A DNA stretch of 64,000 nucleotides from Gemmatimonadales bacterium (GCA_044221045.1 JBGAPX010000003.1:1-64000); one strand, 5' to 3'; counted from the first letter of the stretch, positions 22,631 through 57,465 are shown. The notes: generated by a model from the letters alone, not told the origin. Program-made: numbers and translations.

Positions 22631-22760
22631 GGCGCCGAGTGCACCCTCTACTGCGTGGAGGCCATGCTCTATCCCCGCCAGCTGCACGTGCCGGGGGCGC
22701 GGCGGGGCCGGCGCGCACAAGTGCCGTGACGGTCCCGTGTTAGGTGCTGCGCGGAGGGTA

Positions 22761-22776
22761 CGGCATGGCGCTTGCC
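22761..22776 (+). promoter_or_regulatory. Candidate sigma-54 (-24/-12) promoter upstream of the Nif11-type precursor gene.
   Basis: cGGCATggcgcTTGCc has a GG-N10-GC spacing like the TGGCAC-N5-TTGC consensus. It lies about 85 bp upstream of the ATG at 22860. A near-identical element is at 34186. Confidence 0.4.
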
Positions 22777-22859
22777 TCCGGGTCGGTACGCCGCACCCGC
22801 CGGGACCCGGCTCGGGTCCCCGCACCCTATCACCCACCTTCTTCACCGGAGTCACCGTC

Positions 22860-23141
22860 ATGCCCATCACTCGCGCGGAAGAGCTCATCCAGAAGCTCGG
22901 CACCGACCAGGCGTTTCGCTCCAAGCTGCAGAACGCGGCGGATCCCGAGGCGCGGCGCAAGGTGCTGAACGAGTACGGGTTCTCGGACGTGCAGCGCGCC
23001 GATCTCGAAGCCTACGCCAAGACGCACGCGACGGAGCTCTCCGACGCCGAGCTCGAGGCGGTCGCCGGTGGCCGCACCACCAGCTGGATCTCGGTGGTGA
23101 TCGAGTCGATCGGGCTGTCGCTGGCGGCGGCGGCGCTGTAG
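22860..23141 (+). CDS. RiPP precursor peptide with a Nif11-like leader (71 aa) and a 22-aa core RTTSWISVVIESIGLSLAAAAL.
   Basis: MPITRAEELIQKLGTDQAFRSKLQNAADPEARRKVLNEYGFSDVQRADLEAYAKTHATELSDAELEAVAGG is a Nif11-family leader ending in the LSDxELExVAGG double-glycine cleavage motif. The core has Ser/Thr but no Cys. Confidence 0.8.
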   Translation: MPITRAEELIQKLGTDQAFRSKLQNAADPEARRKVLNEYGFSDVQRADLEAYAKTHATELSDAELEAVAGGRTTSWISVVIESIGLSLAAAAL

Positions 23142-23280
23142 TCCAGGCCCCGGCCGCGCCGGTCGCCGGGTTCCCGCCGTCCCCCCGGGCGGCGGCACCC
23201 CCGGCCGGCGCCCGGTGCCGCCCGCGGACCGATTCCGGTCCGCGTCCCACATCCGCTTCCCCAGTCGCGAGCACCCGCCG

Positions 23281-24600
23281 ATGACCAGTACCTGCATGCC
23301 GAGGTCCGCGGAGCGGTCGCCGGCGCCGGGCGAACCCGCCCCGGCGCCCCCGATCCGTTTCCGGGGCCAGGACTACCGGGCACGGAAGGAGTTCTTCGGC
23401 GGTACCCACCGGGTCGTCCCGCCCGAGGAGACGCTGGAGCGCGCGCGACCCCACTTCCGGCGCGCGGGAATCACCCGGCTCGGTGACATCACGGGGCTCG
23501 ACGTGATCGGGTTGCCGACGGTGCTGGCGTACCGTCCCAACGGCAAGACGCTCTCGAGCGCGGGGGGCAAGGGCTTCACGACCGTCGCCGCGACGGTCTC
23601 GGCGGTGATGGAGGGGATCGAACTCCACCACGCCGAGAACGTGCGCCTGCCGGTCCGCCGCGCGAGCTACCAGGAGCTGGCGGCCGACGGCGCGGTCATC
23701 CCGCGCGCGCAACTCCCGCTGGCCCGGCACGGCCTGTTCCGGGACCACCGGCCGGAGCTGTGGGTCGAGGGATGGGACCTGCTGGGGCAGCACCCGGTGT
23801 GGGTGCCCTTCATCGGCGTATCGCTGGTCCGGCATCCGGCGCAGAAGCCGCTGTGGGGCCGCCCGTTCGTGTGCGACAGCAACGGCCTGGCCTCGGGCAA
23901 CGTGCTGCTGGAGGCGATGGCCGCCGCGCTCTATGAAGTGATCGAGCGTGACGCGATCTCCAGCTTCAAGTGCGCCGAGCACCGCGGCCTGCTGGAGCCG
24001 CGGCGGGTGCGCCTGGAGACGATCCGCCACCCGCTCGTCCGGCAACTGATCGACCAGTGCCAGCGGGCCGAGATCGAGCCGGTGATCTACGACCGGACGA
24101 CCGACCTCGAGGTGCCGGTCTACGAGGCCCACATCTACGATCGCTACCGCCGCCACACCGGGGTCTTCGGCGGCTATGGCTGCCACCTCGACCCGGAGAT
24201 CGCGATGATCCGGGCCCTGACCGAGGCGGCGCAGTCCCGGCTGGTGATCATCGCCGGCGCCCGCGACGACATCTTCCGCCATGAGGAGCTGTCGATGAAG
24301 CTCGCTGACGACGACGGCGCGGTGGAGCGCTACGAACGGACCCCCGCCACCCTCGACGCCCGGGACCGCGCCGCGGTCACGACGTCCTCGTTCGAGGGCG
24401 ACCTCGGCGTGCTGCTGGCGCGCCTGGCCGGGGCGGGGATCGGCCAGGTGATCGCGGTGGACCTCACCCACGAGGAGATCGGCCTGCCGGTCGTGCGGGT
24501 GATCGTCCCGGGGCTCGAGGGGTACATGTCGCAGCACTACGAGCCGGGGCCGCGGGCCCGCGCCTTCGTCGCGGCCGCCAAGGCCCGGAAGGGGGCCTGA
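23281..24600 (+). CDS. YcaO-domain protein of the TfuA-associated type (thioamide-forming / cyclodehydratase family).
   Basis: FFGGTHRVVPPEETLERARPHFRRAGITRLGDITGLDVIGLP...SNGLASGNVLLEAMAAALYEVIERDA matches YcaO ATP-binding motifs. Its stop overlaps the TfuA start (TGATG). The start (23281 or 23215) is uncertain. Confidence 0.85.
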   Translation: MTSTCMPRSAERSPAPGEPAPAPPIRFRGQDYRARKEFFGGTHRVVPPEETLERARPHFRRAGITRLGDITGLDVIGLPTVLAYRPNGKTLSSAGGKGFTTVAATVSAVMEGIELHHAENVRLPVRRASYQELAADGAVIPRAQLPLARHGLFRDHRPELWVEGWDLLGQHPVWVPFIGVSLVRHPAQKPLWGRPFVCDSNGLASGNVLLEAMAAALYEVIERDAISSFKCAEHRGLLEPRRVRLETIRHPLVRQLIDQCQRAEIEPVIYDRTTDLEVPVYEAHIYDRYRRHTGVFGGYGCHLDPEIAMIRALTEAAQSRLVIIAGARDDIFRHEELSMKLADDDGAVERYERTPATLDARDRAAVTTSSFEGDLGVLLARLAGAGIGQVIAVDLTHEEIGLPVVRVIVPGLEGYMSQHYEPGPRARAFVAAAKARKGA

Positions 24601-27931: not shown

Positions 27932-27974
27932 ACGGCACCCGCCCTTACCGACCCTGCGGGGACGAGAGCTCACG

Positions 27975-32256: not shown

Positions 32257-32269
32257 GGGCGCAGGGGTC

Positions 32270-33034
32270 GTGCGAATCCTCGACCTGGACCTGGACTTCT
32301 TCCTCGATCGCGTCGGTTTTCGACGGCCGGATGGCGGCCGACTGGACCCGGACCGGTATCACCCCTGGCCGGAGCCGGAACTGGAGTCCTGGCTCGACCG
32401 CTGCCTCCCGCCGAGTGCACCGCGCCCGCGGGGGCGGGTGGTGACCCACCATCGCGAGGCGTTCTACGTCTGGCGGGAGCTGGTGGAGCGGGGCGCGCTC
32501 GTGCCCCCCCTGGAGATCGTCCATGTGGACGCCCATGCGGACCTCGGCGTGAGCAATGATGGCCACCGGTACCTCATGACGGACCTGCTGCACCGGCCGC
32601 CCGCGGACCGGCGCGCCCCCGCCGCGGAGAAGCTCCGCGACGGCAACTACCTGCTCTTCGCCGTGGCGTGCCGATGGGTTGGGGCCCTCACCTACGTGAC
32701 CCACCCGCAGAGGGAGCGGGCCGGCCGGCTGTGGCAGGACGACCGGCCGACCTGTCTCTTCCGCGACGACGACCCGGAGAGCGGCATCCTGGAGCTTCGA
32801 CGCATGGCCTCGCGGGAGCTCGCGTTCCTTCCCCCGGTCCTGCACGGCTATGGCCGGACCGCGACCACCCCCCTCGGGCTCGAGCCCGCGGTGACGTTCC
32901 GGACCATCGCGGCCCGCGAGTTCGCGGTCGAGGCGCCGTTCGACTTCGTGCTGGTGGCGCGATCGCCTGACTACACGCCGGAGACCGCGGACCGCCTGCT
33001 GCCCCGCATCATGGCCCGGCTCGCCCCGGGCTGA
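32270..33034 (+). CDS. Hypothetical protein, possibly a metal-dependent (UPF0489-like) enzyme.
   Basis: GTG start just after the LanM stop. Motifs VVTHHREAFYVWREL and VHVDAHADLG suggest a His/Asp metal site. The family assignment is tentative. Confidence 0.45.
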   Translation: MRILDLDLDFFLDRVGFRRPDGGRLDPDRYHPWPEPELESWLDRCLPPSAPRPRGRVVTHHREAFYVWRELVERGALVPPLEIVHVDAHADLGVSNDGHRYLMTDLLHRPPADRRAPAAEKLRDGNYLLFAVACRWVGALTYVTHPQRERAGRLWQDDRPTCLFRDDDPESGILELRRMASRELAFLPPVLHGYGRTATTPLGLEPAVTFRTIAAREFAVEAPFDFVLVARSPDYTPETADRLLPRIMARLAPG

Positions 33035-33058
33035 TCCCTCCCGGTCCCGAGCGCGCGC

Positions 33059-34099
33059 ATGCACACCCTGCTCGACAGCCTGCTCACCGTCGGTCATCCG
33101 GCCGTCGCGACGCTGGTCTCTCCCGTCGCGTGGGAGCGCATTTCGGCGGTGGCAGACCGACTGCCCGCCCCGCTCGCCCGATGGCTCTACCTCGAGCGGC
33201 GACTGGACCTTTCCGACGAGCGGGTGGACCTGATCGTCGGGGTGGAGCGAACCGAGGCTCGCCGCCTCGCGGAACCGGGCCGGCCTTTCGAGCCGATGCC
33301 GCGCGGCATCCGCCGCCTTGCCCGGGCCTGGTCAACCGACCAGCGGTATCGGTCCATCGAGCGATGCTGGCTGGAATACGATGTCCTGCCCGACGGAGCG
33401 GCGCCTGCGCCGGGCGTCTTCCTCGACCTGGAGCCGGCTGCCGCGGTGCTCGGCCCGGCGGGCCCGTTCCCGGCCGTGCACCCGGGCCTGGCGTGTCTCG
33501 GTCTCCCGCCTGACCGGCTCCGCCCAGCCCTCCAGCTCCTGGCGCGGCTCCAGGGGCGGGCCCCGGGGCTGCTCCTTCCTTATGTAGGGTATTTCCCCGA
33601 TCGCGCCGATGCCCCGCTCCGGGTGTGCCTTTCGGGCGTCGCGGAGGACACCATCGCCGCGCTGCTCACCGACCTGTCGTGGCCGGGTGAGGTCAGCCGG
33701 GTCGTGACCGTGCTGGCCGCGGCCGGCAGGGCCCCGAGCGTGATCCATCTTGATCTCGGTCCGGAGCTCCTGCCGAGTGTCGGGTTCGAGTTCGGGCTGG
33801 ATCACGGCGCGCAGCTCGAAGGCCGGCTGGCCGAGGGGGCCTGGCTCACTGAGTGGGTTCGCCGGGGATGGTGCCGGCCCGAACTGGTCGCCGGACTCTG
33901 CCGCTGGCCCGAGGTGACCACCGGCGTGATGAGCCATGAGGTGTGGCCGAGCCTTCTGGTCCGCCGGGTCAACCACCTCAAGCTGGTCCTGGACGCTGCC
34001 GGTCGACTGGCGTGCAAGGGGTACCTCTGCTTCACGCACGCGCCACTCTCCGCCCACCGCCCGCGGCGGGCCGAGTCGAGGCAGCTCTCTATCCGTTAG
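33059..34099 (+). CDS. Hypothetical protein with no recognisable domain.
   Basis: A 346-aa ORF in the cluster orientation, with GC3 skew consistent with coding. No motif recognised. Confidence 0.45.
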   Translation: MHTLLDSLLTVGHPAVATLVSPVAWERISAVADRLPAPLARWLYLERRLDLSDERVDLIVGVERTEARRLAEPGRPFEPMPRGIRRLARAWSTDQRYRSIERCWLEYDVLPDGAAPAPGVFLDLEPAAAVLGPAGPFPAVHPGLACLGLPPDRLRPALQLLARLQGRAPGLLLPYVGYFPDRADAPLRVCLSGVAEDTIAALLTDLSWPGEVSRVVTVLAAAGRAPSVIHLDLGPELLPSVGFEFGLDHGAQLEGRLAEGAWLTEWVRRGWCRPELVAGLCRWPEVTTGVMSHEVWPSLLVRRVNHLKLVLDAAGRLACKGYLCFTHAPLSAHRPRRAESRQLSIR

Positions 34100-34185
34100 A
34101 TCGAGCGCTCGGCCCGGGCCGGATCCGCCGGGTGGTCCATGCTCGATGTTGTGGCCCTGACAGCAGTTGCTCACCGCGCCCCCGA

Positions 34186-34201
34186 CGGTACGGGCCTTGC
34201 C
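34186..34201 (+). promoter_or_regulatory. Candidate sigma-54 (-24/-12) promoter upstream of the NHLP precursor gene.
   Basis: cGGTACgggccTTGCc, about 60 bp upstream of the ATG at 34261. Same GG-N10-GC TTGC arrangement as at 22761. Confidence 0.4.
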
Positions 34202-34260
34202 TTCCTGCGATCAGCAAGTCGTCTGGTCTCCGCGTCACTGCCACGACATCCGGAGTAGCG

Positions 34261-34635
34261 ATGCCCACGTCCAATGATCGGGAGCGCCAGGTCCTCGAAG
34301 CCGTCGTGGATCGGGCGTCGAAGGACCCAGTGTTCCGCAAGCTGCTGCTCACCGACCCGCGGGGCACCATCGACGCGAACTTCGGCGTCCGGATCCCGGA
34401 GACATTCCGGATCCGGTTCATCGAGCGGGACCCGGATCTCGACGCCCTCATCGTCCTGCCGGACCTGCAGGTCACCAACGCGGAGCTGTCGGACCAGGAC
34501 CTCGAGGCGGTGACTGGCGGTGCCCAGCAGTCGGCATGGGCGGGCGAGCTGGGCCCGATCTCGGTTCCTGCGGCCGGCTTCATCCTCAACGGCGCGTACG
34601 TGCAGAGTCGTGGCACGCTCGGGCGCCGTTCCTAG
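34261..34635 (+). CDS. RiPP precursor peptide with an NHLP (nitrile hydratase leader peptide) leader of 87 aa and a 37-aa core.
   Basis: MPTSNDRERQVLEAVVDRASKDPVFRKLLLTDPRGTIDANFGVRIPETFRIRFIERDPDLDALIVLPDLQVTNAELSDQDLEAVTGG | AQQSAWAGELGPISVPAAGFILNGAYVQSRGTLGRRS. The leader is NHLP-like with a GG cleavage site. The core has no Cys. Confidence 0.8.
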   Translation: MPTSNDRERQVLEAVVDRASKDPVFRKLLLTDPRGTIDANFGVRIPETFRIRFIERDPDLDALIVLPDLQVTNAELSDQDLEAVTGGAQQSAWAGELGPISVPAAGFILNGAYVQSRGTLGRRS

Positions 34636-34669
34636 CGGATTGCCCACCTCCCAACCCAGGAGCATCCCC

Positions 34670-34867
34670 GTGACCCCTCCGTCCGTGAACTCACCGGAGC
34701 GCCCGTCCCAGCCGTCGCCGACCCTGGCCGGGCTGGATGAACTGAGCGACGCGGACCTCGAGCATGCGGTCGGCGGGCTGGCGCGGGTCTGGCTGGGGGC
34801 GGACCTGCCCCGGTCCGAGGACGTCCTGTTCCGGTCCGCGCTGCCGGCGCATCCGGCCGTGTCGTGA
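34670..34867 (+). CDS. Third small precursor-like peptide (65 aa) with a short double-glycine leader.
   Basis: GTG start after AGGAG. VTPPSVNSPERPSQPSPTLAGLDELSDADLEHAVGG | LARVWLGADLPRSEDVLFRSALPAHPAVS. LSDADLEHAVGG resembles class-II bacteriocin GG leaders. The core has no Cys. Confidence 0.5.
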   Translation: MTPPSVNSPERPSQPSPTLAGLDELSDADLEHAVGGLARVWLGADLPRSEDVLFRSALPAHPAVS

Positions 34868-34874
34868 GGATGTG

Positions 34875-36434
34875 ATGACGGTCGCATCGTCCTGCGTCGT
34901 GCGACGGTCCGGCGCTGGCTGGTGGCTGCGCGGCGTCCCGCTCGGGCCGCTGTTCTGGCTGCTGTTGCCCACGGCGCTGGCCGCACAGGAGGAGGCGCCG
35001 CCCGGGGCCCTGCACCTGCGGGACGCGCTGCGACTGGCCCGCGGCGGGAACACCGCCATCCGCCTGGCGACGGAGCAGACCCGTGTGGCCTGGGCGGGCT
35101 CGCTGCAGGCGAGCGCCCCCTACGACCTCAACTTCACGACGTCGTTCACCTCGGTCACCAGCCGCAGCCCGGTGCAGGTGCCGGGGGCCGTCGCCTCGCT
35201 GCCGGACGTGAGCGCGCTGAAGCAGCTGGACTACAGCGTGGGACTGAGCAAGACCTTCCGCTCCGGCCTGCAGCTCTCGCCTTCGGTCACGGTGCAGCGG
35301 ATCGACCTCTCGACGACGCCGGGCGCCCCGGTGGCGCGCTCCACCGTGGCGCTCAATGCGCTGGTGCCGTTGCTGCGCGACCGGGCCGCCCTGAACCTCC
35401 GCGCGTCCGGCGAGGTAGCCGACGCCGAGGTGCTCGCGTCGGAGGATGACCGGCGGCACGCGACGGCGGTGGCGCTGCAGTCGGTGGCGGCGGCCTACTG
35501 GACCTACGTGGGAGGGGTGCGGCGACTCGCCGCGCAGCAGGCCGCCGAGGCGCGGGCCCAGCGCACGGTGGAGGTGACCCGCCGGCTCATCGAGGCGGAC
35601 GAAAGGACCCCGTCCGACCTCGACCAGGTGATCGCCAACGCGACCCAGAAGACGGTGCTGCGGCTGGCGGCGGAACAGGCGCTGGTCCAGGCCCGCCAGC
35701 AGCTCGGGGTCGCGATGGGGCTCGACCCCGGGGCGATCGCCACGCTGCCGCTGCCGGCGGACAGCTTCCCCATGGCCGCCGGGAATGCCGCGGTGCCGCG
35801 CCTGGCCGATTGGCAGGCGCAGGCGGTGGCGGGGCGGCGCGACCTGTCGGCCGCCACGACGCGGGCCCGTGCCACTGACTGGCTGGAGCGGTCGGCCGCG
35901 AACGACCTGCGACCCCGGCTCGACCTCTCGGTCGGGGTGGGCTACCAGGGCATCGACCAGGGCAACGAGGCCGACCACACCCTGGGCGCGCTGTTTCGGA
36001 ACGTGCCCGGGCTGCAGGCCACCGTGCAGGTCCGCTTCCAGCAACCGACGAGCGGGACCCTCGGTCACGCGCGGCTGGTCCAGGCGGAGGCCACCACGGC
36101 CCAGCGGGAGGCCACCCTGGCAGACCTGCGCCGGCGCGTCCTCTCGTCGGTGGAGGTGGCGGCGCGGGGCCTCGATAACGCCCGGGTCAGCGTGGACGCG
36201 GCCGGCACGGCGGTGGCGATGGCGCGCCGCGGCGTGGACCACCAGGAGCGCAAGTTTGCGCTCGGGTTGGCCACGCTCTTCGACGTCATCCAGGCCCAGG
36301 ACGCGCTCACCGCGGCCGAACTGAGCGAGATCACCAGCCAGCAGGCCTTCGCCGTCGCGATCGCGCAGCTCCGCCTCGAAACGGCCACCCTGGTGCTGGA
36401 CGACGCGCCGGTGGACCTGCTGCAGGCGCCGTAG
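34875..36434 (+). CDS. TolC-like outer-membrane efflux protein.
   Basis: Signal peptide (LGPLFWLLLPTALAAQEE), then two repeats of the OEP fold with conserved coiled regions (LATLFDVIQAQDALTAAE...). Confidence 0.8.
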   Translation: MTVASSCVVRRSGAGWWLRGVPLGPLFWLLLPTALAAQEEAPPGALHLRDALRLARGGNTAIRLATEQTRVAWAGSLQASAPYDLNFTTSFTSVTSRSPVQVPGAVASLPDVSALKQLDYSVGLSKTFRSGLQLSPSVTVQRIDLSTTPGAPVARSTVALNALVPLLRDRAALNLRASGEVADAEVLASEDDRRHATAVALQSVAAAYWTYVGGVRRLAAQQAAEARAQRTVEVTRRLIEADERTPSDLDQVIANATQKTVLRLAAEQALVQARQQLGVAMGLDPGAIATLPLPADSFPMAAGNAAVPRLADWQAQAVAGRRDLSAATTRARATDWLERSAANDLRPRLDLSVGVGYQGIDQGNEADHTLGALFRNVPGLQATVQVRFQQPTSGTLGHARLVQAEATTAQREATLADLRRRVLSSVEVAARGLDNARVSVDAAGTAVAMARRGVDHQERKFALGLATLFDVIQAQDALTAAELSEITSQQAFAVAIAQLRLETATLVLDDAPVDLLQAP

Positions 36435-36474
36435 CCGCCGACCGATCCGGACGACCCATCCCCGTGAGGATTCC

Positions 36475-37731
36475 GTGAGCCAGATCTTCCGCAAAGTCTC
36501 GCTCGACCGCCTGGCCTCACCCGAGCAGCTGGACCAACTGATGCGCGTCACCGACTCGCGCGGGTGGATCGCGCTGGCCGGGATCGCGCTGGTACTGCTG
36601 ACCGGCGTGGTCTGGGGCTGGCTGGGGCGGCTGCCCGAGCGGGTCGTGGGCCAGGGCATGCTGGTGCGCAGCGGCGGCGTGCTGCAGGTCATTCCCTCGG
36701 CCGGCGGACGAGTGGTCGACGTAGCCGTCGGGGTGGGGGACCATGTCACCGAGGGCCAGGTGGTGGCGCGGGTGGAACAGCCGGGGCTGGCGGACCGCCT
36801 GCGGAGCGCCCGGGCGACGCTCGCCAACCTGCAGGAGGCCGGGCGGGTGGCGGCGATGTACGGCCGCCGGGACAGCGACCTTCGCGGCACCATCCTGGCG
36901 CAGCAGCGGGCCAACCTGGAACGGGCGATCACCGCGGCCCGGGAGGATCTCGGGTGGCTCGGCGAGAAGATCACGAGCCAGGAACGCCTGGTGGCGGAGG
37001 GGCTGCTGACACGCACGACGCTGCTGGGGACCCGGCAGCAGTACGAGGCGACCCGCTCGCGCATCGCGGAATCAGAGAACCAGCTCACCCAGCTGGCCCA
37101 GCAGGGGCTGGCGCTGCAGAACCAGGCCGAAGGCGACGCCATCGCGGCCGGATTCCGGTTGCGCGAAGCGGCGGCGCAGGTGGAGCAGCTGGAGCGGGAG
37201 CTGAACGAAAGCTCGCGGGTGACCGCGCCGGCGACGGGGCGGATCCTGGAGCTGCTGACCGAGCGGGGCAGCCTGGTGGCCCCGGGCGAGCCGATCCTGG
37301 CGCTCGACCTCGTGGGCAAGGAAGTGAAGGACCTGGAGGCGGTGCTGTACGTGCCCGCCATCCATGGCAAGCAGATCCGGCCCGGCATGACCATCCAGAT
37401 CGCCCCCTCGACGGTGAAGCAGGAGGAGTACGGCCTGATGCTGGGGCGGGTGACCTACGTCTCCGACTTCCCCGCGACGAGCAAGGGCATGATGCGGGTG
37501 CTCAAGAACGACAAGCTGGTGTCGGCCCTGTCCGGGGGCGGCGCGCCCTACGAGGTGCACGCCGACCTGATCGTGGACCCGACCACCGTCAGCCAGTACC
37601 GGTGGTCGTCGTCCCAGGGCCCGCCGGTCAAGATCGAGAGCGGCACGCTCGCCATGGGCAACATCGTGGTGTCGTCGAAGCGTCCGCTGGAGATGGTGAT
37701 CCCGCTGGTTCGCAAGTCCACGGGCCTGTAG
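36475..37731 (+). CDS. HlyD-family secretion (membrane fusion) protein of the NHLP/Nif11 bacteriocin export-system type.
   Basis: N-terminal transmembrane helix, then LVRSGGVLQVIPSAGGRVVDVAVGVGDHVTEGQVVARVEQP (a biotinyl-lipoyl-like barrel) and a long coiled coil. Confidence 0.85.
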   Translation: MSQIFRKVSLDRLASPEQLDQLMRVTDSRGWIALAGIALVLLTGVVWGWLGRLPERVVGQGMLVRSGGVLQVIPSAGGRVVDVAVGVGDHVTEGQVVARVEQPGLADRLRSARATLANLQEAGRVAAMYGRRDSDLRGTILAQQRANLERAITAAREDLGWLGEKITSQERLVAEGLLTRTTLLGTRQQYEATRSRIAESENQLTQLAQQGLALQNQAEGDAIAAGFRLREAAAQVEQLERELNESSRVTAPATGRILELLTERGSLVAPGEPILALDLVGKEVKDLEAVLYVPAIHGKQIRPGMTIQIAPSTVKQEEYGLMLGRVTYVSDFPATSKGMMRVLKNDKLVSALSGGGAPYEVHADLIVDPTTVSQYRWSSSQGPPVKIESGTLAMGNIVVSSKRPLEMVIPLVRKSTGL

Positions 37732-37750
37732 CCCCGCTCCCGGTGCCCTC

Positions 37751-40042
37751 ATGACTGCACCCATCGCCGAACCCACCCTGGCGGGCCGCCTGCAGCGGGT
37801 CGTGGCCGGGGGCCGGGCCCGCATGGAGGCCTGGCTGCCGGGCGGCCGCCCCGCGTCGCCAGCCGGGGACGAACCGGCCCCGCCGCCGGCCCGTCCGCAC
37901 CGACGGGTGCGGACGCCGACGGTGCTCCAGATGGAAGCGGTCGAGTGCGGCGCGGCCTCGCTGGCCATGATCCTCGCGCATTTCGGCCGGCACGTGCCGC
38001 TGGAGGAACTGCGGCTGGCCTGCGGGGTGTCCCGCGACGGCAGCAAGGCCAACAACGTGCTCAAGGCGGCCCGGGAATACGGGCTGGTGGCGAAGGGGTT
38101 CAAGCGGGAGCCGGCCGACCTGGCGACGATGCCGGTCCCGATGATCCTGCACTGGAACTTCAACCACTTCATCGTCTTCGAGGGATTCCGGAAGGGGCGG
38201 GCGTACCTCAACGACCCCAACTCCGGCCCGGCGTCGACCACGCTCGAGGAGTTCGACCAGGCCTTCACCGGGGTGTGCCTGACCTTCAGTCCGGGGCCGG
38301 CGTTCGCGCCGGGTGGGGAGTCGCCCAGCCTGCTGGCGCCGCTGCGCCGGCGGCTCGCGGGCTCGGGCGGCGCGGTGGTGTTCGTGGTGCTGGCCGGCTT
38401 GTCGCTGCTGCTGCCCGGGCTGGTGGCGCCGACCTTCAACCGCATCTACCTCGACGACCTCCTGGTGAAGGGGCTGCACGAGTGGCTGCGTCCGCTGCTG
38501 TGGGTCATGGGCCTCACGGCGACGGTCACCTTCGGGCTGGTGCTCCTGCAGCAGCGCTACCTGCTGCGCTTCGAGAGCAAGCTGTCGCTGGATACCTCCG
38601 GCAAGTTCCTGTGGCACGTCCTGCGGCTCCCGGTGGAGTTCTTCACCCAGCGGTACGCGGGCGAGATCGGGAACCGGGTGGGGATCAACGACAAGATCGC
38701 CCGGCTGCTGTCCGGCGACCTGGCCACCACCACCCTGAACGTCCTGGTGATCGCGGGCTACGCCGCGCTGCTGGTGCAGTACGACGGGCTGCTGACGGCG
38801 CTGTGCGTGGGCACGGCGGTGCTCAACATCCTGGCGCTGCGTTACGTCTCGCGGCGGCGCACCGACCTGAACCAGCGGATCCTGCAGGACCGCGGCAAGC
38901 TGATGGGGACCGCGATGGGCGGGCTGCAGACCATCGAGACCCTGAAGGCGACGGGCTCGGAGTCGGACTTCTTCGCCCGCTGGTCGGGGTACCAGGCGAA
39001 GGTCTCCAATGCCTTCCAGGACCTGCAGCTCACCACGCTCTTCCTCTCCAACGTCCCGCCGCTCCTGCTGGGCGTGACCACGGCGCTGGTGCTGGGCGTG
39101 GGCGGGGCGCGGGTGATGGACGGCTACCTGACGATGGGCATGCTGATCGCCTTCCAGTCGCTGATGTTCGCGTTCCTGGCGCCGGTCAACAAGCTGGTGG
39201 AGCTGGGCAGCACGCTGCAGGAGGTCCGCGGCGACATGAACCGGCTCGACGACGTGCTGCGCTACCGCACCGATCCCGGCCTGGAGGCGCTCGCCCCGGT
39301 GCCCGCGGAGGGCCACGTCAAGCTCGAGGGCTACCTGGAGCTGCGCGGGGTCACCTTCGGGTACAACCGGCTCGACCCGCCGCTCATCCAGGACTTCAAC
39401 CTCCGGCTGACACCGGGCATGCGGGTGGCGCTGGTCGGCGGCTCCGGCTGCGGCAAGACCACCGTGGCCAAGCTGGTCGCGGGGCTGTACCAGCCGTGGA
39501 GCGGCGAGATCCTCTTCGACGGCAAGCCGCGGACCGAGGTGCCGCGGCCGGTCCTGGTCAACTCGTTCGCCGTGGTGGATCAGGAAGTGAGCATGTTCGA
39601 GGAGTCGATCAAGGACAACCTGACGCTCTGGAACCACACCGTGCAGGAGCATGACCTGGTGCAGGCGGCCCGCGACGCGGCGATCCACGCCGACCTGGCC
39701 GACCGCCCGGGCGGCTACGCCTCGATGGTCGAGGAGGGCGGCCGGAACTTCAGCGGCGGGCAGCGCCAGCGCATGGAGATCGCGCGAGCGCTGGTGCTCA
39801 ATCCCGCGATCATGGTGCTCGACGAGGCGACCAGCGCGCTCGACGCCACGACGGAGAAGGAGATCGATGAGAGCCTGCGACGTCGCGGCTGCACCTGCCT
39901 CATCGTGGCGCACCGGCTGAGCACCATCCGCGACTGCGACGAGATCCTGGTGCTGGACAAGGGCCGCATCGCGCAGCGCGGCACCCATGCCGAGCTGATG
40001 GCGGTGGCCGGCCACTACCGTGACCTGATCGCCGCCGAGTAA
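37751..40042 (+). CDS. ABC transporter with an N-terminal C39 peptidase domain (double-glycine leader peptidase, permease and ATPase).
   Basis: C39 catalytic Cys in LQMEAVECGAASLAMIL and His in NHFIVFEG. Six-helix transmembrane domain. Walker A GGSGCGKTT, signature FSGGQRQR, Walker B MVLDEATSALD. Confidence 0.9.
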   Translation: MTAPIAEPTLAGRLQRVVAGGRARMEAWLPGGRPASPAGDEPAPPPARPHRRVRTPTVLQMEAVECGAASLAMILAHFGRHVPLEELRLACGVSRDGSKANNVLKAAREYGLVAKGFKREPADLATMPVPMILHWNFNHFIVFEGFRKGRAYLNDPNSGPASTTLEEFDQAFTGVCLTFSPGPAFAPGGESPSLLAPLRRRLAGSGGAVVFVVLAGLSLLLPGLVAPTFNRIYLDDLLVKGLHEWLRPLLWVMGLTATVTFGLVLLQQRYLLRFESKLSLDTSGKFLWHVLRLPVEFFTQRYAGEIGNRVGINDKIARLLSGDLATTTLNVLVIAGYAALLVQYDGLLTALCVGTAVLNILALRYVSRRRTDLNQRILQDRGKLMGTAMGGLQTIETLKATGSESDFFARWSGYQAKVSNAFQDLQLTTLFLSNVPPLLLGVTTALVLGVGGARVMDGYLTMGMLIAFQSLMFAFLAPVNKLVELGSTLQEVRGDMNRLDDVLRYRTDPGLEALAPVPAEGHVKLEGYLELRGVTFGYNRLDPPLIQDFNLRLTPGMRVALVGGSGCGKTTVAKLVAGLYQPWSGEILFDGKPRTEVPRPVLVNSFAVVDQEVSMFEESIKDNLTLWNHTVQEHDLVQAARDAAIHADLADRPGGYASMVEEGGRNFSGGQRQRMEIARALVLNPAIMVLDEATSALDATTEKEIDESLRRRGCTCLIVAHRLSTIRDCDEILVLDKGRIAQRGTHAELMAVAGHYRDLIAAE

Positions 40043-40054
40043 CCCTCCGGTCCC

Positions 40055-43045
40055 TTGCGGGAGCCCACGCGCATGGCTGACACGCTTTCGACATCCCCCG
40101 ACGCGCCCGCGGTCGACGCCCGGCTCTTCGACGCCGATGGCGGGCAGTCGCTCGACGTGGGCAGCGACCAGCCGTTCCTGCTCGATGACGACCGGATGTG
40201 GCTGGTGCAGCAGGGCCACGTGGAGGTCTTCTGCGTCCGGCTGGACCGGGGGAAGGCCACCGGCGCGCGCCACCACCTGCTGCGGGTCGGCGCCGGGCAG
40301 CCCCTGTTCGGGCTCGGGCCCGAGGCCACCGGGGGCGAGTGGGGCCTCCTCGCCGTCGGGACGTCGGGGACGCGGCTGCTACCGGTCCGCCGGGCCGCGC
40401 TGCGCGCGCTGGGCCGCGATCCGGCGCACGCCGGGGAAGTGGCGGCCCTGCTCGATCACTGGATCCACGCCCTGTGCGCCGCGATCACCGGCGACCTGCG
40501 GCCGAAGCGCGTCACCGAGCTCGCCGCGGGTGAGCCCCACGTGGTCGAGGAACGCGGCGCCGCCCGGCCCCGGCCGCCGATCGGCTGGATCCGGCACTCG
40601 GCGGGGCACGCCCTCCTGCTGGGGCGGCCCGAACTCGAGGTGAACGGGCACGGGTTCACCCCCGTGGCGCGGTCGGCCTGGCTCGAGCTGCTGCCGGAGA
40701 GCCGCTTCGAACTGGTGGAGACGGGGACCCTGGTGGCGGACGACGATGCCTGGTTCGGGCTGAGCCGGCTGCATGCCCTCGTGCTCCGCTATATGGGGCT
40801 CCAGATCCTGGAGTCGCAGGGCCGGGAGCGCGAGCGGCTGGAAGCGAAGGCGGCGCACGACCGGTCGGCGCTGCAGCAGGCCTGCGCCCGGCTGGCGGTG
40901 AGTCTCGACCCGGAGCTGGCCGAGGGCGAGGAGCTCGCCGGCCCCACGGAGGCCGAGCGCCGAACCGACCCGCGCGCGCCAGACGCCCTGTTCCTCGCCT
41001 GCCGCCTGGTGGGCCGGGCCGCCGGCGTCACCGTCGTGCCGCACCCGGCCGGTGAGGGGTCGGCCGTGCCGCGGGATCCGCTGGAGGCGATCGCGCGGGC
41101 CAGCCGCCTGCGGATGCGCCGCCTGGCGCTGCGCGGCGAGTGGTGGCGGGAGGACAACGGGCCGATGGTCGCCCGGCTGGCCGACGGCGACCACCCCGTG
41201 GCCCTGCTGCGCGACCGGAAGGGACAGTACCGGCTGCACCATCCGGTCGACCGCACCGAGGTCACGGTCACCCGTGAGGTGGCCGACACGCTCCACCCCT
41301 TCGCCCATGCCTTCTACCGTCCGTTCGCCGCCACCCGGCTCGGCGTGCGGGATGTGCTCCAGTTCGGCTTCCGCGGCTGCCAGCGCGACCTGTGGATGCT
41401 GCTCGCCTGTGGCCTCGCGGCCGCGGCGCTCGGCATGGTCCCGTCGATCGCCACCGGGGTGCTGTTCAACGACGTCATCCCCGCGGCCGCGCGCCCGGCG
41501 CTGGTGCAGATGACCGTCATCCTGATCGTCTGCGCGCTCGTCACCAGCCTGTTCACCGTGGCCCGCGGCATCGCCCTCCTCCGCATCGAAAGCCGGATGG
41601 GTGCCAGTGTCCAGGCGGCGGTCTGGGACCGGCTGCTGGGGCTGCCGCTGGCGTTCTTCCGGCCGTACACCGCCGGCGACCTCGCGGTGCGGGCGATGTC
41701 CATCGACGCCATGCGCCAGGTCATCTCGGGCACCACGGTGACCGCGCTGATGGGCGGCCTCTTCTCGGTTGGCAACGTCGCCCTGATGTTCTGGTACAGC
41801 GCCTCGATGGCGTGGCGGGCCTCCCTGCTGATCGGACTGGTGATCCTGCTGACCGGCATCGGCAGCTACTTCCAGCTCCGCTACAACCGGCAGATCTACA
41901 CCCTGCAGTCCAAGGTCTCGGGCCTGGTCCTGCAGCTCCTGGGCGCGATCGCGAAGCTCCGGGTGGCCGGCGCCGAGGTCCAGGCGTTCGCCCGCTGGGC
42001 CGACCGCTTCGCCGAGCAGCGCCGGCTCCAGTACGGCGTGCGCCGGATCCAGAACTGGGTCAGCGCCCTCAATGCCGCATTCCCGGTCCTGGCCTACCTG
42101 GTCATCTTCTGGATCGCCCTCCCGCTGATCACCGAGGGCCAGGAGATGCGGACCGGCGACTTCATGGCCTTCCTCTCCGCCTACGCTTCGTCCTCGGCCG
42201 CTCTCCTCTCCACCTGCATGGCGCTGCTCTCGACCCTCAACATCGTGCCGCTGTACGAGCAGGCGCGGCCGATCCTCGAGGCCCTGCCCGAGGTCGGCGC
42301 CGGCAAGGCGGACCCCGGGGTGCTCACCGGCGAGATCGAGGTCCAGCACGCCGTGTTCCGCTACAACCCGGATGGCCCGCCGGTGCTCCGCGACGTGACG
42401 CTGCAGATCCAGCCGGGGCAGTTCCTCGCCCTGGTCGGACCCTCCGGTTCCGGCAAGTCGACGATCCTCCGGCTGCTGCTGGGCTTCGAGACCCTGGAGT
42501 CGGGCGCCATCTACTTCGACGGGCAGGAGCTCGGTGGCCTCGACGTTCAGGCGGTGCGGCGCCAGATCGGGGTGGTGCTGCAGAGCGGGCGGCTGATGTC
42601 CGGGGACATCTTCACGAACATCGTCGGGTCCTCGCTGGCCACCCTGGACGAGGCGTGGGACGCGGCCCGCATGGCGGGCCTCGACGACGACGTCCGGGCC
42701 ATGCCGATGGGGATGCACACCGTGATCAGCGAGGGGGGAGGCACCCTCTCCGGCGGCCAGCGGCAGCGGCTCCTGATCGCCCGGGCCATCGTGCACCGGC
42801 CCCGGCTGCTGTTCTTCGACGAGGCGACGAGCGCGCTGGACAACCGCACGCAGGCGATCGTCAGCCGAAGCCTGGAGCAGCTGCAGGCCACCCGGATCGT
42901 GGTGGCCCACCGGCTCAGTACCATCGTGAACGCGGACCGGATCATCGTCCTGGACCGTGGCCGCATCGTCCAGAGCGGCCGCTACGAGGAGCTGATGGCC
43001 CGCGAGGGACTGTTTCGCGAACTCGCTCGACGGCAGATCGCCTGA
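40055..43045 (+). CDS. ABC transporter permease/ATPase with an N-terminal cyclic-nucleotide-binding-like domain (NHLP export-system second ABC subunit).
   Basis: The N-terminal roughly 330 aa are cNMP-binding-like (no peptidase motifs). Then a transmembrane domain, Walker A GPSGSGKST, LSGGQRQR and FFDEATSALD. Confidence 0.85.
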   Translation: MREPTRMADTLSTSPDAPAVDARLFDADGGQSLDVGSDQPFLLDDDRMWLVQQGHVEVFCVRLDRGKATGARHHLLRVGAGQPLFGLGPEATGGEWGLLAVGTSGTRLLPVRRAALRALGRDPAHAGEVAALLDHWIHALCAAITGDLRPKRVTELAAGEPHVVEERGAARPRPPIGWIRHSAGHALLLGRPELEVNGHGFTPVARSAWLELLPESRFELVETGTLVADDDAWFGLSRLHALVLRYMGLQILESQGRERERLEAKAAHDRSALQQACARLAVSLDPELAEGEELAGPTEAERRTDPRAPDALFLACRLVGRAAGVTVVPHPAGEGSAVPRDPLEAIARASRLRMRRLALRGEWWREDNGPMVARLADGDHPVALLRDRKGQYRLHHPVDRTEVTVTREVADTLHPFAHAFYRPFAATRLGVRDVLQFGFRGCQRDLWMLLACGLAAAALGMVPSIATGVLFNDVIPAAARPALVQMTVILIVCALVTSLFTVARGIALLRIESRMGASVQAAVWDRLLGLPLAFFRPYTAGDLAVRAMSIDAMRQVISGTTVTALMGGLFSVGNVALMFWYSASMAWRASLLIGLVILLTGIGSYFQLRYNRQIYTLQSKVSGLVLQLLGAIAKLRVAGAEVQAFARWADRFAEQRRLQYGVRRIQNWVSALNAAFPVLAYLVIFWIALPLITEGQEMRTGDFMAFLSAYASSSAALLSTCMALLSTLNIVPLYEQARPILEALPEVGAGKADPGVLTGEIEVQHAVFRYNPDGPPVLRDVTLQIQPGQFLALVGPSGSGKSTILRLLLGFETLESGAIYFDGQELGGLDVQAVRRQIGVVLQSGRLMSGDIFTNIVGSSLATLDEAWDAARMAGLDDDVRAMPMGMHTVISEGGGTLSGGQRQRLLIARAIVHRPRLLFFDEATSALDNRTQAIVSRSLEQLQATRIVVAHRLSTIVNADRIIVLDRGRIVQSGRYEELMAREGLFRELARRQIA

Positions 43046-43066
43046 TCCGCCGATCCCATCCGGAGA

Positions 43067-44248
43067 ATGCCCATGCCGCGCCCGCTCTCGTCCCCGTCAC
43101 TCCGCCTGCTGCTGCCGGCGCTCGCCGCGCTCCTGGGTTGCCAGGGGGGCCCGGCGCGCGGCCCGAACGACCCGATCGTCCTGGGGGTGGCGTGGCCCTG
43201 GCAGGCCCGGCAGGGCCTGCGCTTCGAGGACGGCCTGACCCTGGCGATCGAGGAGACCAACGCGGCGGGCGGGGTGCTGGGCCGGCCGCTGTCCCTGCGG
43301 CGGGTCGATGACGAGGAGTCCGTGGACGCCGGGCGCCTCGCAGCCCAGGCGCTCGCGGCCGATCCCGAGGTGACGGCGGTGATCGGGCACCTGCAGTCGT
43401 ACGTGGCCGTGCCCGCGGCGGCGATCTACGACCTGGCGGGCAAGGTCCTCCTGGCGCCGGCGGCCACCGACCCGCGCCTCACCGCCCTGGGCTACCCGCG
43501 GGTGTTCCGGGCCACCTTCACCGACCGGGTCGTCGGTGAGACCCTGGCGAGCTACGCCCGGGCGCAGGGCTATCGCCGGATCGCGATCTGCTACATCCGC
43601 AACACCTACGGCCGCAACCTGGCCAACGCCTTCGAGGAGGACGCCATCGCCCATGGCCTGCAGATCGTGGCCCGCCAATCCTACGATCCCAGCGACCAGG
43701 TGAGCGAGCGCACGTTCAGCGAGATGGTGGCCGACTGGCGGCACGAACCGCTCGATGCCGTGTTCCTCGCCGGTGAAACCCCCTCGGCCGGCCACTTCCT
43801 GGTCGAGGCCCGCCGCCAGGGGCTGCAGGTGCCCGTCCTCGGTGGTGACGCGCTGAGTTCCCCCGAACTGCTGCAGGTGGCCGGCGCCGACGCCGAGGGG
43901 GTGGTGGTCGCCACGATCTTCCATCCCGACGATCCGCGCCCCGAAGTCCGCCGCTTCACGGACGCCTTCCGCCGACGCTTCGGCATCGCCCCGGACCCGG
44001 GCGCGGCGATCGGCTACGACGCGGTCCGCCTGCTCGCGGACGCCATGACGCGCGCCGGCTCGGTGGACCCGGCCCCCCTGGCCACGGCCCTGCACGCCAC
44101 GCGCGACTTCACGGGGGTGACCGGCACCTTCACCTTCGGCCCCGACGGCGACCTGATCGGCAAGGCACCGGTCATCGTCCAGGTGCGCCAGGGCGAGTTC
44201 GCCTTCCGGGGCGCGCCCGCGCCCGGCGCGCAGATGGCCGCGCGATGA
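43067..44248 (+). CDS. Periplasmic substrate-binding lipoprotein (type I PBP, LivK / branched-chain amino acid-binding-like); an orphan with no permease genes.
   Basis: Lipobox ALLGCQGG. Peripla_BP_6-type sequence IVLGVAWPWQARQG...AVIGHLQSYVAV... Confidence 0.75.
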   Translation: MPMPRPLSSPSLRLLLPALAALLGCQGGPARGPNDPIVLGVAWPWQARQGLRFEDGLTLAIEETNAAGGVLGRPLSLRRVDDEESVDAGRLAAQALAADPEVTAVIGHLQSYVAVPAAAIYDLAGKVLLAPAATDPRLTALGYPRVFRATFTDRVVGETLASYARAQGYRRIAICYIRNTYGRNLANAFEEDAIAHGLQIVARQSYDPSDQVSERTFSEMVADWRHEPLDAVFLAGETPSAGHFLVEARRQGLQVPVLGGDALSSPELLQVAGADAEGVVVATIFHPDDPRPEVRRFTDAFRRRFGIAPDPGAAIGYDAVRLLADAMTRAGSVDPAPLATALHATRDFTGVTGTFTFGPDGDLIGKAPVIVQVRQGEFAFRGAPAPGAQMAAR

Positions 44249-45417
44249 CGAGCGCCAGGGCCTGCCCCGCCGGCGCGCAGCACGACCCGGACTACCGCGC
44301 AGCCATCCTGCGGCGCCACGGGGCCGATGCCGGCACCCTCGCGGAGCTGCTGGCGTACACGGCGAGTGCGTTCTCGCGGCCCGACGTGATGCCGGCCGAC
44401 TATCCCCTGCCCGACGAGCGATTCGTTGCGGCCTGGGAGCGCTACGCCGCGTCGGCCGCGGAGCGCGGCGTGGTGCCCGTGCTCCGCGAGGCGCTGGTAC
44501 AGCTGCGCTTTCCCATCGTCGAGGGCATCAGCCAGACCGAGGCCTACCGCGCCGCGACCCAGCGGGGCGCAGGCCCGACGGAGGGGGCAGTGCATCCGGG
44601 GCTGGCCTTCGTCGCCCCCGACCGGATCGAGCTGCTGCTCTATCCCACGCCCGCGGGCCGGATCCCGGTGATCATCGCCCGGGAGCGCGCCGATTTCGAG
44701 ACCCTGGTCCGCGCCCTCACGCGGAAGAATGAGCCGGCGCCGGTGCCCCCGTCCATGGGCGCGTGCATCGTGGGCGGCTACAACAACTGGGAACGGGTGG
44801 CCCGGCTGCGGGAGGCGTGGCAGGCGGAGGTGGCGGAGCCGTCGGAGGCGGCGTGGGCGGAGGAATTCCGGGCCCTCGTGCCGCGAAAGGAGATGTACCA
44901 GGACCGGTTCATCCTGCTGAGCGCCGGCCCCTACAGCGCCGTGCCCGGCGCCGCCCTCGGCCTGAGCGCCACCGCCTGGGCCGAGCGCTCCCTGGTCCTG
45001 CGGCTGGAGCATGAATGCGCCCACTACTTCACGCGGCGGGTCTTCCAGTCCATGAGGAACGTGCTGCTCGACGAGCTGCTCGCCGATTTCATGGGAATCG
45101 TGGCGGTCCGCGGACGTTACTCTGCTGGCTGGTTCCTCCACTTCCTCGGGCTGGAGCAGTACCCCCAGTGCCGCGCCGGCGGCCGGATGGAGAACTACCG
45201 TGGCTCCCCGCCGCTCTCCGCCGCTGCCCTCGACGTGCTGTCGTCGCTGGTCCGGGCCGCAGCCTTCAACCTTGAACGGCTGGACCTGGAGCGATCCGCG
45301 CCGGCCTGGGGGCTGGTGGAAAAGGGCCGCACGCTCGCGACACTGACCGAAATGTCACTCGAGGCCCTCGGCGACCCGGCGATGGTCACGAGGGTGTGGA
45401 AAACGGCGCTGGGATGA
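44245..45417 (+). CDS. Hypothetical protein with an HExxH motif (putative metallopeptidase).
   Basis: RLEHECAHYFTRRVF contains HECAH. 4-bp overlap with the upstream gene. It is the last plus-strand gene before the regulatory gap. Confidence 0.55.
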   Translation: MTSARACPAGAQHDPDYRAAILRRHGADAGTLAELLAYTASAFSRPDVMPADYPLPDERFVAAWERYAASAAERGVVPVLREALVQLRFPIVEGISQTEAYRAATQRGAGPTEGAVHPGLAFVAPDRIELLLYPTPAGRIPVIIARERADFETLVRALTRKNEPAPVPPSMGACIVGGYNNWERVARLREAWQAEVAEPSEAAWAEEFRALVPRKEMYQDRFILLSAGPYSAVPGAALGLSATAWAERSLVLRLEHECAHYFTRRVFQSMRNVLLDELLADFMGIVAVRGRYSAGWFLHFLGLEQYPQCRAGGRMENYRGSPPLSAAALDVLSSLVRAAAFNLERLDLERSAPAWGLVEKGRTLATLTEMSLEALGDPAMVTRVWKTALG

Positions 45418-45419
45418 GA

Positions 45420-45757
45420 ACTGCCACGGAGGTGGCGAGATAGGCGCCTCACCGCACGCTGCGTGTTGACAGTGATTGTCGTGGATGTGGGTTTGTTGAC
45501 AGGCGGCGACTTCATGAACGCGCCGTTGCTGTGGATAACGAGCGTGAGGGAGCCTCGACGACGCGTCGTGCTGTGGATATGTACGCGCTTGACGAGTCTC
45601 AGGCTGAATCGAATATTGCGAACCGCTCCCACTGGCTAACAAGTCACGCCGGTGCATGTCCACGGACGGACACCCCCATCCTGCCGGCCCAGTCCACCGA
45701 AGGTCACCACCCTCGCGTGCTGGCGAACGGACGGATTCCCCACAGATCGGAGCCGCC
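45420..45757. promoter_or_regulatory. 338-bp lower-GC intergenic regulatory region upstream of the sigma-54 activator gene.
   Basis: Two TTGACA hexamers (gtgTTGACAgtg, gtttgTTGACAgg), a direct repeat GCTGTGGATA x2 (about 45527 and 45572), and A/T-rich tracts that are rare in this genome. Confidence 0.5.
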
Positions 45758-57464: not shown

Positions 57465-57465
57465 C

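Follow-up and report, generated by a model that had tools for sequence, protein, structure and literature searches.

Predicted sigma-54 control of precursor genes by a cluster-encoded activator in a Gemmatimonadales RiPP gene cluster

Introduction

How a gene cluster for ribosomally made, modified peptides (RiPPs) is switched on is the question raised by a stretch of 64,000 nucleotides from a Gemmatimonadales bacterium (GCA_044221045.1, JBGAPX010000003.1:1-64000), which was analysed over its whole length and is referred to here as the window. It contains a RiPP gene cluster at approximately 20.7-48.7 kb (Table 1), in which the genes of a Nif11-type and an NHLP-type leader precursor are accompanied by genes for modification and export and by a gene for a sigma-54 activator. 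In an initial annotation of the window, matching -24/-12-like elements upstream of the two precursor genes had been taken as a sign of sigma-54- and enhancer-dependent expression. The window has a G + C content of 73% (0.729) and matches metagenome contigs of the ENA series ERZ272585xx, and the named nearest relatives of its proteins are genome bins of the Gemmatimonadales and Gemmatimonadaceae. Gemmatimonadota are abundant in soil, but hardly any have been cultured, and metagenomes are the only source of knowledge on their biosynthetic clusters.

Natural-product clusters are known to contain sigma-54 promoters (Stevens et al., 2013, PMC3665592), and sigma-54 and the activator Nla28 directly control polyketide and non-ribosomal-peptide genes in Myxococcus xanthus (Ma, Welch and Garza, 2021, PMC7910581). 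For the Gemmatimonadales cluster, a matrix scan, palindromes at enhancer distance, a promoter module recurring across loci, and the conserved position of the activator gene suggest, with a probability that we put at roughly 0.8, that the RiPP precursor genes are transcribed from sigma-54 promoters activated by the cluster-encoded enhancer-binding protein. The proposal of the initial annotation is thereby supported in its main point, and those of its suggested checks that can be done computationally all had a favourable outcome.

Results

Promoter elements upstream of the precursor genes

Both precursor genes are preceded by an element with the exact GG-N10-GC geometry of sigma-54 (-24/-12) promoters (P2 and P3; Table 1). 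The motif ends 84 nt before the ATG of the Nif11 precursor gene (22860) in P2 and 60 nt before the ATG of the NHLP precursor gene (34261) in P3, and the two elements are identical at 12 of 16 positions. The positions, geometry, and mutual likeness originally ascribed to these sites were thus reproduced; a global alignment of the two precursor upstream regions failed to put the motifs in register. A third element overlooked in the initial annotation, P1, lies upstream of a small membrane open reading frame (ORF). The sites conform to sigma-54 promoters in geometry and matrix score, in orientation and distance to the downstream gene, and in their distance to an enhancer.

Several observations weigh against this interpretation. 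Matches to TGGCACGNNNNTTGCW with up to three mismatches numbered 70 in the window as compared to 90 expected from shuffled sequence, the corresponding numbers for GG-N8-TTGC were 28 and 33, and single sites in the window are therefore weak when taken alone. Each site deviates from the 12 specified consensus bases at three positions, with C instead of T at -26 and C instead of A or T at -11 among the differences. Similar scores of the clade matrix described below are also reached at clearly intragenic positions, for example 25007 (-) and 39137 (+). The low counts and the intragenic scores would be expected if the -24/-12-like motifs were chance matches in a genome with 73% G + C, the precursor genes being transcribed by sigma-70 holoenzyme and the activator regulating something else. 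Plain consensus counting cannot decide whether the sites exceed chance, and position-specific scoring was used instead. A generic sigma-54 matrix, which is approximate in that its frequencies were set from the consensus and not taken over from a published table, ranked P2 second, P1 fourth, and P3 seventh among 127,970 window positions. With a clade promoter matrix trained on 24 sites of other loci, the window being excluded, P3 ranked first (19.0 bits), P2 second (16.4 bits), and P1 fourth. The pattern by which the training sites were selected had in part been inspired by the window, a circularity that was controlled for by scoring only the 15 positions left free by this pattern; among the 143 window positions conforming to the latter, the three sites then ranked first, third, and fourth, the two sites of the initial annotation being first and third. 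Both of these sites therefore score far above the window background; scores no better than background would, according to the initial annotation, have refuted its proposal. Furthermore, no sigma-70-like promoter was found at 22200-23400 around P1 and P2 or at 33900-34900 around P3, which is at odds with sigma-70-dependent transcription of the precursors. P1-P3 thus exceed chance by matrix rank, position, and conservation, and not by consensus counts.

A further sigma-54-like site on the minus strand, TGGCACGGTGGATGCA, faces P1 and points at the ThiS-like and ThiF-rhodanese genes. With 15.8 bits it is the best match of the generic matrix in the window; it has no upstream activator sequence of its own and no counterpart in the other loci, and whether it serves the ThiS/ThiF genes as a divergent promoter is uncertain.

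Upstream activator sequences

The initial annotation had suggested a search for palindromic upstream activator sequences (UAS) 80-150 bp upstream of the two promoters. The palindrome CTCTA-N5-TAGAG with at most one mismatch occurs only twice in the 64 kb, once upstream of each of the annotated sites, and its centre is located 93 bp (NHLP precursor) and 109 bp (Nif11 precursor) before the promoter. When scored with a clade UAS matrix, UAS 1 upstream of P1 was the best match in the window (19.2 bits), UAS 3 upstream of P3 scored 17.3 bits, and UAS 2 upstream of P2 reached 11.1 bits, which is above the 99th percentile of the null distribution. Among the best eight promoter matches in the window, P1-P3 were the only ones with a UAS match above this percentile in the zone 60-135 bp upstream, a selectivity that chance matches to the promoter motif would not explain. 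In all three window modules, and in 15 of 24 modules elsewhere, a third half-site (CTC..) follows exactly 21 bp after the first, so that the enhancer is tripartite with the structure CTCTA-N5-TAGAG-N6-CTC.

Conservation of the module in related loci

To what extent this arrangement is conserved was assessed by comparing 83 loci with orthologues of the activator gene; in addition to three long contigs, 80 orthologue loci were obtained by a metagenome scan with an alignment of the activator C-terminus only. An earlier contig scan with the full activator alignment had been dominated by matches to the generic GETGTGKE pattern and yielded unrelated activators of other phyla; the loci of the latter were reused as negative controls. 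In the other loci the motif GG(C/T)A(C/T)G-N4-TTGCC(C/T)T is found upstream of the first precursor gene of each array, with the palindrome CTCTA-N5-TAGAG approximately 95 bp further up. Independent Gemmatimonadota loci with both an activator orthologue and this palindrome-spacer-promoter module number about 20. In about 20 loci the module is followed by the gene of a double-glycine-leader precursor, in occasional cases by that of an OEP or an oxidase, and the start codon of this gene is located 58-104 nt from the GG of the promoter.

The distances between palindrome centre and GG, for palindromes with no or one mismatch, are 82, 85, 93, 93, 94, 94, 94, 95, 95, 95, 95, 96, 96, 109, 115, 116, and 120 bp. 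Most of them (11 cases) fall between 93 and 96 bp, and the preferred spacings of approximately 83, 94, 105, and 116 bp are separated by steps of about one helical turn, whereas control palindromes with three mismatches showed a flat distance distribution. For 8 of the 27 near-perfect palindromes located outside the window, a site of the generic matrix was detected at a distance of 79-97 bp, where 0.0126 would be expected by chance for each palindrome (binomial P approximately 1e-9). Perfect palindromes were absent from the control loci with unrelated activators (1.29 Mb), as were modules from high-GC control loci (460 kb); three loose module matches in the controls were all AT-rich chance matches in Bacteroidota. 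The recurrence of a bipartite module with sharply peaked spacing before precursor genes in about 20 independent loci makes it very unlikely that the window motifs are chance matches.

A different objection concerns the nature of the conserved element rather than its reality. The core GGCA-N8-TGCC is a 4+4 inverted repeat and thus a possible target of a dimeric factor, modest reverse-strand sigma-54 scores occur 14 nt away, and the pairing of the activator with the palindrome is one that we infer. The element GG(C/T)A...TGCC could accordingly be a palindromic operator, or the upstream palindrome could be bound by another regulator. The Nif11 module, with its off-peak spacing of 109 bp and its weaker palindrome, also fits the proposed enhancer arrangement less well. 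However, the conserved positions of the element are asymmetric (G at +5, T at +10, and C(C/T)T following the GC) and agree with the sigma-54 consensus TGGCACG-N4-TTGC, and the element is always oriented toward the downstream gene, at the distances given above. The palindrome lies at a classical enhancer distance with helical phasing, and the activator is the sole conserved candidate for a DNA-binding protein in these loci. An operator of a dimeric factor, or another regulator at the palindrome, is therefore distinctly improbable.

In many loci the palindrome is followed, at a distance of about 60 bp, by an AT-richer, moderately conserved patch with CGCAA or CAA-N4-TTG (for example, at approximately 11715 in locus L007, 1285 in L138, and 7725 in L128). 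Located midway between enhancer and promoter, it could be a site for a bending protein of the integration host factor (IHF) type; no clear instance was seen in the modules of the window.

The activator is also embedded in a conserved gene order. Synteny of the genes for HlyD, C39-ABC, ABC2, periplasmic binding protein, DUF7005, and activator was detected by tblastn in at least 20 loci. On the three long contigs the activator orthologue directly follows OEP, HlyD, C39-ABC, ABC2, periplasmic binding protein, and DUF7005, and has arrays of small double-glycine-leader genes and LanM on its other side; locus L130 additionally contains LanM, dehydrogenase, TfuA, and YcaO.

The activator protein

The product of the gene at 45758 is a receiver-less sigma-54 activator with a GSFTGA loop, as the initial annotation had it. 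Its AAA+ domain matches Sigma54_activat (PF00158) with 212 bits (cut-off 20.2; residues 39-206), and the closest relatives of solved structure are NifA, NtrC1, ZraR, and PspF (E values of 1e-54 to 1e-60). A search of 5.8 billion proteins revealed a tight family of activators of about 375 aa with 54-62% full-length identity, all named members of which are from Gemmatimonadota. Walker A (GETGTGKE, residues 67-74) and Walker B (VVFLDE, residues 135-140) are invariant in 31 family members. The protein thus has the AAA+ domain and the Walker motifs of bacterial enhancer-binding proteins and lacks an N-terminal regulatory domain: approximately 38 residues precede the AAA+ domain, and neither a receiver nor any other domain was detected in them. 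Such a domain is typical of the family and not obligatory, and PspF likewise lacks one. In an activator without sensory domain, control must lie in the abundance of the activator or in a partner protein; in known cases the activity-controlling partner is PspA (for PspF) or HrpV (for HrpR/HrpS).

No match to a Pfam helix-turn-helix family (HTH_8) was found in the activator. Its C-terminal 75 aa are highly conserved among the 31 members (...FW..V..P...R.L.R......GL....GSYK.LL..F.....YL.FMDFLRH..LKP), and a sequence comparison of this part with the solved structures in the PDB gave only noise and no relative. An AlphaFold2 model predicts a five-helix domain (pLDDT 92), whose best fold matches are weak and include the DNA-binding domains of NtrC4, NtrC1, NtrX, TyrR, and Fis. 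The C-terminal helical domain is presumed to bind DNA.

The resemblance to TyrR raises the possibility that the activator is a sigma-54-independent regulator of the TyrR/DhaR/VpsR type, which would bind the palindrome and act on sigma-70 holoenzyme. Besides TyrR appearing among the weak fold matches and the missing HTH_8 domain, the loop sequence GSFTGA in place of the canonical GAFTGA is in line with this possibility, as is the absence of an rpoN gene from the 64-kb window, which also counts against sigma-54 dependence as such. However, the loop residues F117, T118, G119, and A120 (of residues 115-120) are invariant in the 31 members, and canonical GAFTGA is found in 6 of them. F and T are the critical residues of the loop according to the survey by Francke et al. 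(PMC3162934), and GSFTGA does not occur in those supplementary text files of this survey that were searched, which include its list of defective loops. The same survey states that bacteria having two membranes and lipopolysaccharide almost always possess sigma-54, and it lists a sigma-54 homologue (YP_002761129.1, E value 8e-57; additional file 1) for Gemmatimonas aurantiaca T-27, the type species of the phylum, in a table row that appears to hold also the counts of enhancer-binding proteins of that species. Since, moreover, the target genes carry the exact GG-N10-GC element and no sigma-70-like hexamers, a sigma-54-independent mode of action is very unlikely.

The region upstream of the activator gene

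The activator gene is preceded by a 340-bp intergenic region, the G + C content of which (0.621, as compared to 0.729 in the window) is among the lowest 0.3% of 340-nt windows. It contains TGCTGTGGATA twice (45527 and 45569) and TGTTGACAG twice (45464 and 45494). The existence of an AT-rich, repeat-containing region at this place, as noted in the initial annotation, was thus confirmed, whereas its implied role in sigma-54 control was not: GCTGTGGATA and GTGGAT repeats showed no enrichment upstream of orthologous activator genes (ratio 1.3), TGCTGTGGATA was not enriched in the orthologous upstream regions either, and a search before 51 activator orthologues yielded no palindrome-promoter module. 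For the latter reason, we reject that the activator gene regulates itself through a module of its own. A sigma-70-like element, TTGACG-17-AATATT, is located at 45589-45617, and shuffled sequences contained none. TTGACA is 7-fold enriched upstream of the activator genes, relative to a baseline of whole loci and not of other intergenic regions. Judging from these motifs, the activator gene looks sigma-70-driven and not autoregulated.

Gene content of the cluster

The positions of all features are listed in Table 1. The precursor identities assigned in the initial annotation were confirmed by NCBIfam models above their cut-offs, and the trio of NHLM export proteins likewise exceeded the curated cut-offs (given in brackets) of TIGR03794 with 362 bits (156), TIGR03796 with 1076 (853), and TIGR03797 with 934 (709). 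With leaders ending in GG and the HlyD/C39-ABC/ABC2 trio, the cluster belongs to the NHLP/Nif11 precursor systems with NHLM export. No Rho-independent terminator was found 3' of either precursor gene. The export and accessory operon is probably co-transcribed from P3, and the biosynthesis operon (YcaO/TfuA/LanM) and the export operon are probably both driven by the same sigma-54 promoters as the precursors. Contrary to the initial annotation, the activator gene is located near the cluster end and not strictly last, because the gene of a NifS-like aminotransferase starts 15 nt 3' of it on the same strand; in other loci the NifS-like gene is not adjacent to the activator gene.

Table 1. Features of the RiPP gene cluster and its putative regulatory elements in the 64-kb window.
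Feature	Position	Strand	Remarks
Promoter P1, TGGCACCCCGCTTGCC	22373-22388	+	GG at 22374; predicted start near 22399
Promoter P2, CGGCATGGCGCTTGCC	22761-22776	+	GG 22762-63, GC 22774-75; predicted start near 22787
Promoter P3, CGGTACGGGCCTTGCC	34186-34201	+	GG 34187-88, GC 34199-200; predicted start near 34212
UAS 1, GTCTATCGGATCGAG (22283-22297) and third half-site CTCTA (22304-22308)	22283-22308	+	Centre 84 bp before GG at 22374; module 22283 to 22373 (membrane ORF)
UAS 2, CTCTACTGCGTGGAG (22646-22660) and third half-site CTCTA (22667-22671)	22646-22671	+	Centre 109 bp before GG at 22762; module 22646 to 22761 (Nif11 precursor)
UAS 3, CTCTATCCGTTAGAT (34087-34101) and third half-site CTCGG (34108-34112)	34087-34112	+	Centre 93 bp before GG at 34187; module 34087 to 34186 (NHLP precursor)
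Sigma-54-like site TGGCACGGTGGATGCA	22398-22413	-	Faces P1
Receiver-less enhancer-binding protein, 379 aa	45758-46897	+	AAA+ sigma-54 interaction domain, C-terminal helical domain
Low-GC intergenic region, 340 bp	45418-45757		Repeats and sigma-70-like element; followed by activator gene
ThiF-rhodanese and ThiS-like genes	20766-22238	-	First genes of the cluster order; ThiS-like protein with C-terminal GG
Two-helix membrane ORF, 53 aa	22469-22630	+	Downstream of P1; G + C by codon position 0.83/0.43/0.91 in the correct frame
Nif11-type leader precursor, 93 aa (...ELEAVAGG/RTTSW...)	22860-23141	+	TIGR03798, 56.3 bits (cut-off 32.3); Pfam Nif11
YcaO, TfuA, glycosyltransferase, zinc dehydrogenase, LanM, UPF0489, unknown gene		+	Follow the Nif11 precursor gene on the same strand; LanM is a class II lanthipeptide synthetase (DUF4135)
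NHLP-type leader precursor, 124 aa (...DLEAVTGG/AQQS...)	34261-34635	+	TIGR03793, 54.1 bits (cut-off 50.9)
Third double-glycine-leader peptide, 65 aa (...DADLEHAVGG/LARVWLGADLPRSEDVLFRSALPAHPAVS)	34670-34867	+	Core LARVWLGADL...; followed by the export genes
OEP, NHLM HlyD, C39-ABC, ABC2, lipoprotein periplasmic binding protein, DUF7005	34875-45417	+	Export and accessory genes; Pfam and NCBIfam
DUF7005	44245-45417	+	In related loci always between periplasmic binding protein and activator
NifS-like class-V aminotransferase	46912-48144	+	Followed by a SET-domain gene

Scanning for the module led to two small genes in the window. One is the membrane ORF downstream of P1, which has a central W-x-x-P loop and a 53-aa counterpart of similar sequence between the precursors and LanM in locus L008 (16347-16508, -); the encoded protein may be an immunity or accessory protein. 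The other is a third double-glycine-leader peptide overlooked in the initial annotation, which is encoded between the NHLP precursor and OEP genes with an AGGAG 8 nt before its GTG start and has a core poor in Cys, Ser, and Thr. Small peptides with an L-x-R-x-W/Y/H core directly after the GG are found in seven other loci (L007 at approximately 20791, L009 at 17523, L119 at 771, L146 at 7058 (-), L161 at 16700, L162 at 6854 (-), and L165 at 183 (-)). The one in L165 is located behind its own UAS-promoter module, as is a related GG-leader peptide without the L-x-R-x-W core in locus L140. Instead of being an antibiotic, the third leader peptide could serve in signalling.

Between the stop codon of the Nif11 precursor gene and YcaO, a GC-rich hairpin without T tract was observed (23146-23219, +; -59 kcal/mol, z -3.35), which may act as an attenuator or transcript stabiliser setting the ratio of precursor to enzyme. 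The cluster is flanked by genes for a ThiS/MoaD-like carrier ending in GG, a ThiF-rhodanese fusion, and a NifS-like cysteine desulfurase. Together these look like a dedicated sulfur relay for the thioamide step of YcaO/TfuA, for which the ThiS-like and ThiF-rhodanese proteins could supply the sulfur. The NHLM ABC2 transporter has about 300 extra N-terminal residues (window 40055-40980, +) without Pfam match, the TIGR03797 match beginning at residue 310, and by eye this extension resembles a cyclic-nucleotide-binding-like barrel.

DUF7005 was considered as an anti-activator; this was rejected since an invariant HExxH points to a metallopeptidase. The respective motif, RLEHECAHYFTRR, is conserved in 30 of 30 homologues, which suggests that DUF7005 is an uncharacterised zinc metallopeptidase. 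Elsewhere in the window, an ECF sigma factor (3679-4431, -), two tandem histidine kinases without adjacent response regulator (7883-11718, +), and a separate RND efflux operon (54987-60636, +) are encoded; a gene for a CAAX/Rce1-like protease (18091-18672, +) adjoins the cluster.

Discussion

Proposed mode of activation

Taken together, the conserved elements would be explained by the following sequence of events. The activator gene would be expressed from its own sigma-70-type promoter, and the activator would bind, through its C-terminal helical domain, to the tripartite site CTCTA-N5-TAGAG-N6-CTC centred approximately 84-109 bp upstream of the -24 GG, that is, about 120 bp upstream of the transcription start. 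It would then oligomerise and loop to the closed complex of sigma-54 holoenzyme at GG(C/T)A(C/T)G-N4-TTGCC, where ATP hydrolysis and the G(S/A)FTGA loop would open the promoter.

It is conceivable, and in our view improbable, that this two-membraned bacterium uses the sigma-54 circuit as the output of an autoinduction loop based on a peptide. The double-glycine-leader peptide of the L-x-R-x-W type would be cleaved and exported by C39-ABC and OEP, and the lipoprotein periplasmic binding protein would sense it outside the cell. A relay would then alter the activity of the receiver-less activator, to which DUF7005 with its HExxH motif might contribute by proteolysis. Since the sensor genes are located within the activator-dependent operon, such a loop would amount to positive feedback. 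If true, RiPP production would be governed by a sigma-54-based switch akin to quorum sensing.

Relation to known systems

Among known systems, those closest to the predicted sigma-54 circuit of the precursor genes are PspF and pspA in Escherichia coli and HrpR/HrpS in Pseudomonas syringae. These share with it an AAA+ domain that contains Walker A, Walker B, and a GAFTGA-type loop, the lack of a receiver or sensory domain, a C-terminal helical domain, and an inverted-repeat upstream site approximately 100 bp from a GG-N10-GC promoter. It differs from them in that the C-terminal domain of the activator is not matched by Pfam HTH_8 and lacks sequence relatives among PDB structures, in the loop sequence G(S/A)FTGA, in the tripartite upstream site, and in its regulon, which would consist of RiPP precursor and export genes. 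We regard the system as a classical sigma-54 circuit in a new setting, in which the activator subfamily and the class of targets are new and the enhancer is defined.

The Nla28 system of M. xanthus (PMC7910581) is similar in that sigma-54 drives natural-product genes and half-sites for the enhancer-binding protein are found upstream of the -24/-12 elements. Nla28 is, however, a global activator of the response-regulator type encoded outside the clusters, whereas the activator in the window is dedicated, cluster-encoded, and receiver-less. In addition, most natural-product sigma-54 promoters of M. xanthus are intragenic according to that study, in contrast to the window promoters, which are intergenic, directly precede RiPP precursor genes, and belong to a different phylum.

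Among the described NHLP/Nif11 systems with NHLM export (TIGR03793, TIGR03798, TIGR03794, TIGR03796, and TIGR03797), which have the precursors, export trio, LanM, and YcaO/TfuA in common with the cluster analysed here, the Gemmatimonadota stand apart by adding a syntenic sigma-54 activator, a periplasmic binding protein, and DUF7005. We know of no description of any of these three as part of an NHLP/Nif11 system. A literature search of incomplete coverage likewise retrieved none, nor did it retrieve any publication in which RiPP precursors have a sigma-54 activator encoded in their own cluster or in which this Gemmatimonadota system is described.

Implications

The combination of palindrome and promoter provides a mining signature for precursor genes that are missed by gene callers. 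Furthermore, the presence of a dedicated, apparently constitutive activator together with CTCTA-N5-TAGAG-N6-CTC and the promoter type suggests a mode of activation for these RiPP clusters and a recipe for the heterologous expression of silent clusters, in which the 379-aa activator would be co-expressed in a host with sigma-54 or P1-P3 would be replaced. If the reading of the precursor promoters as sigma-54-dependent is correct, direct sigma-54 control of natural-product genes would extend from the polyketide and non-ribosomal-peptide genes of Myxococcus to ribosomal peptides and to another phylum.

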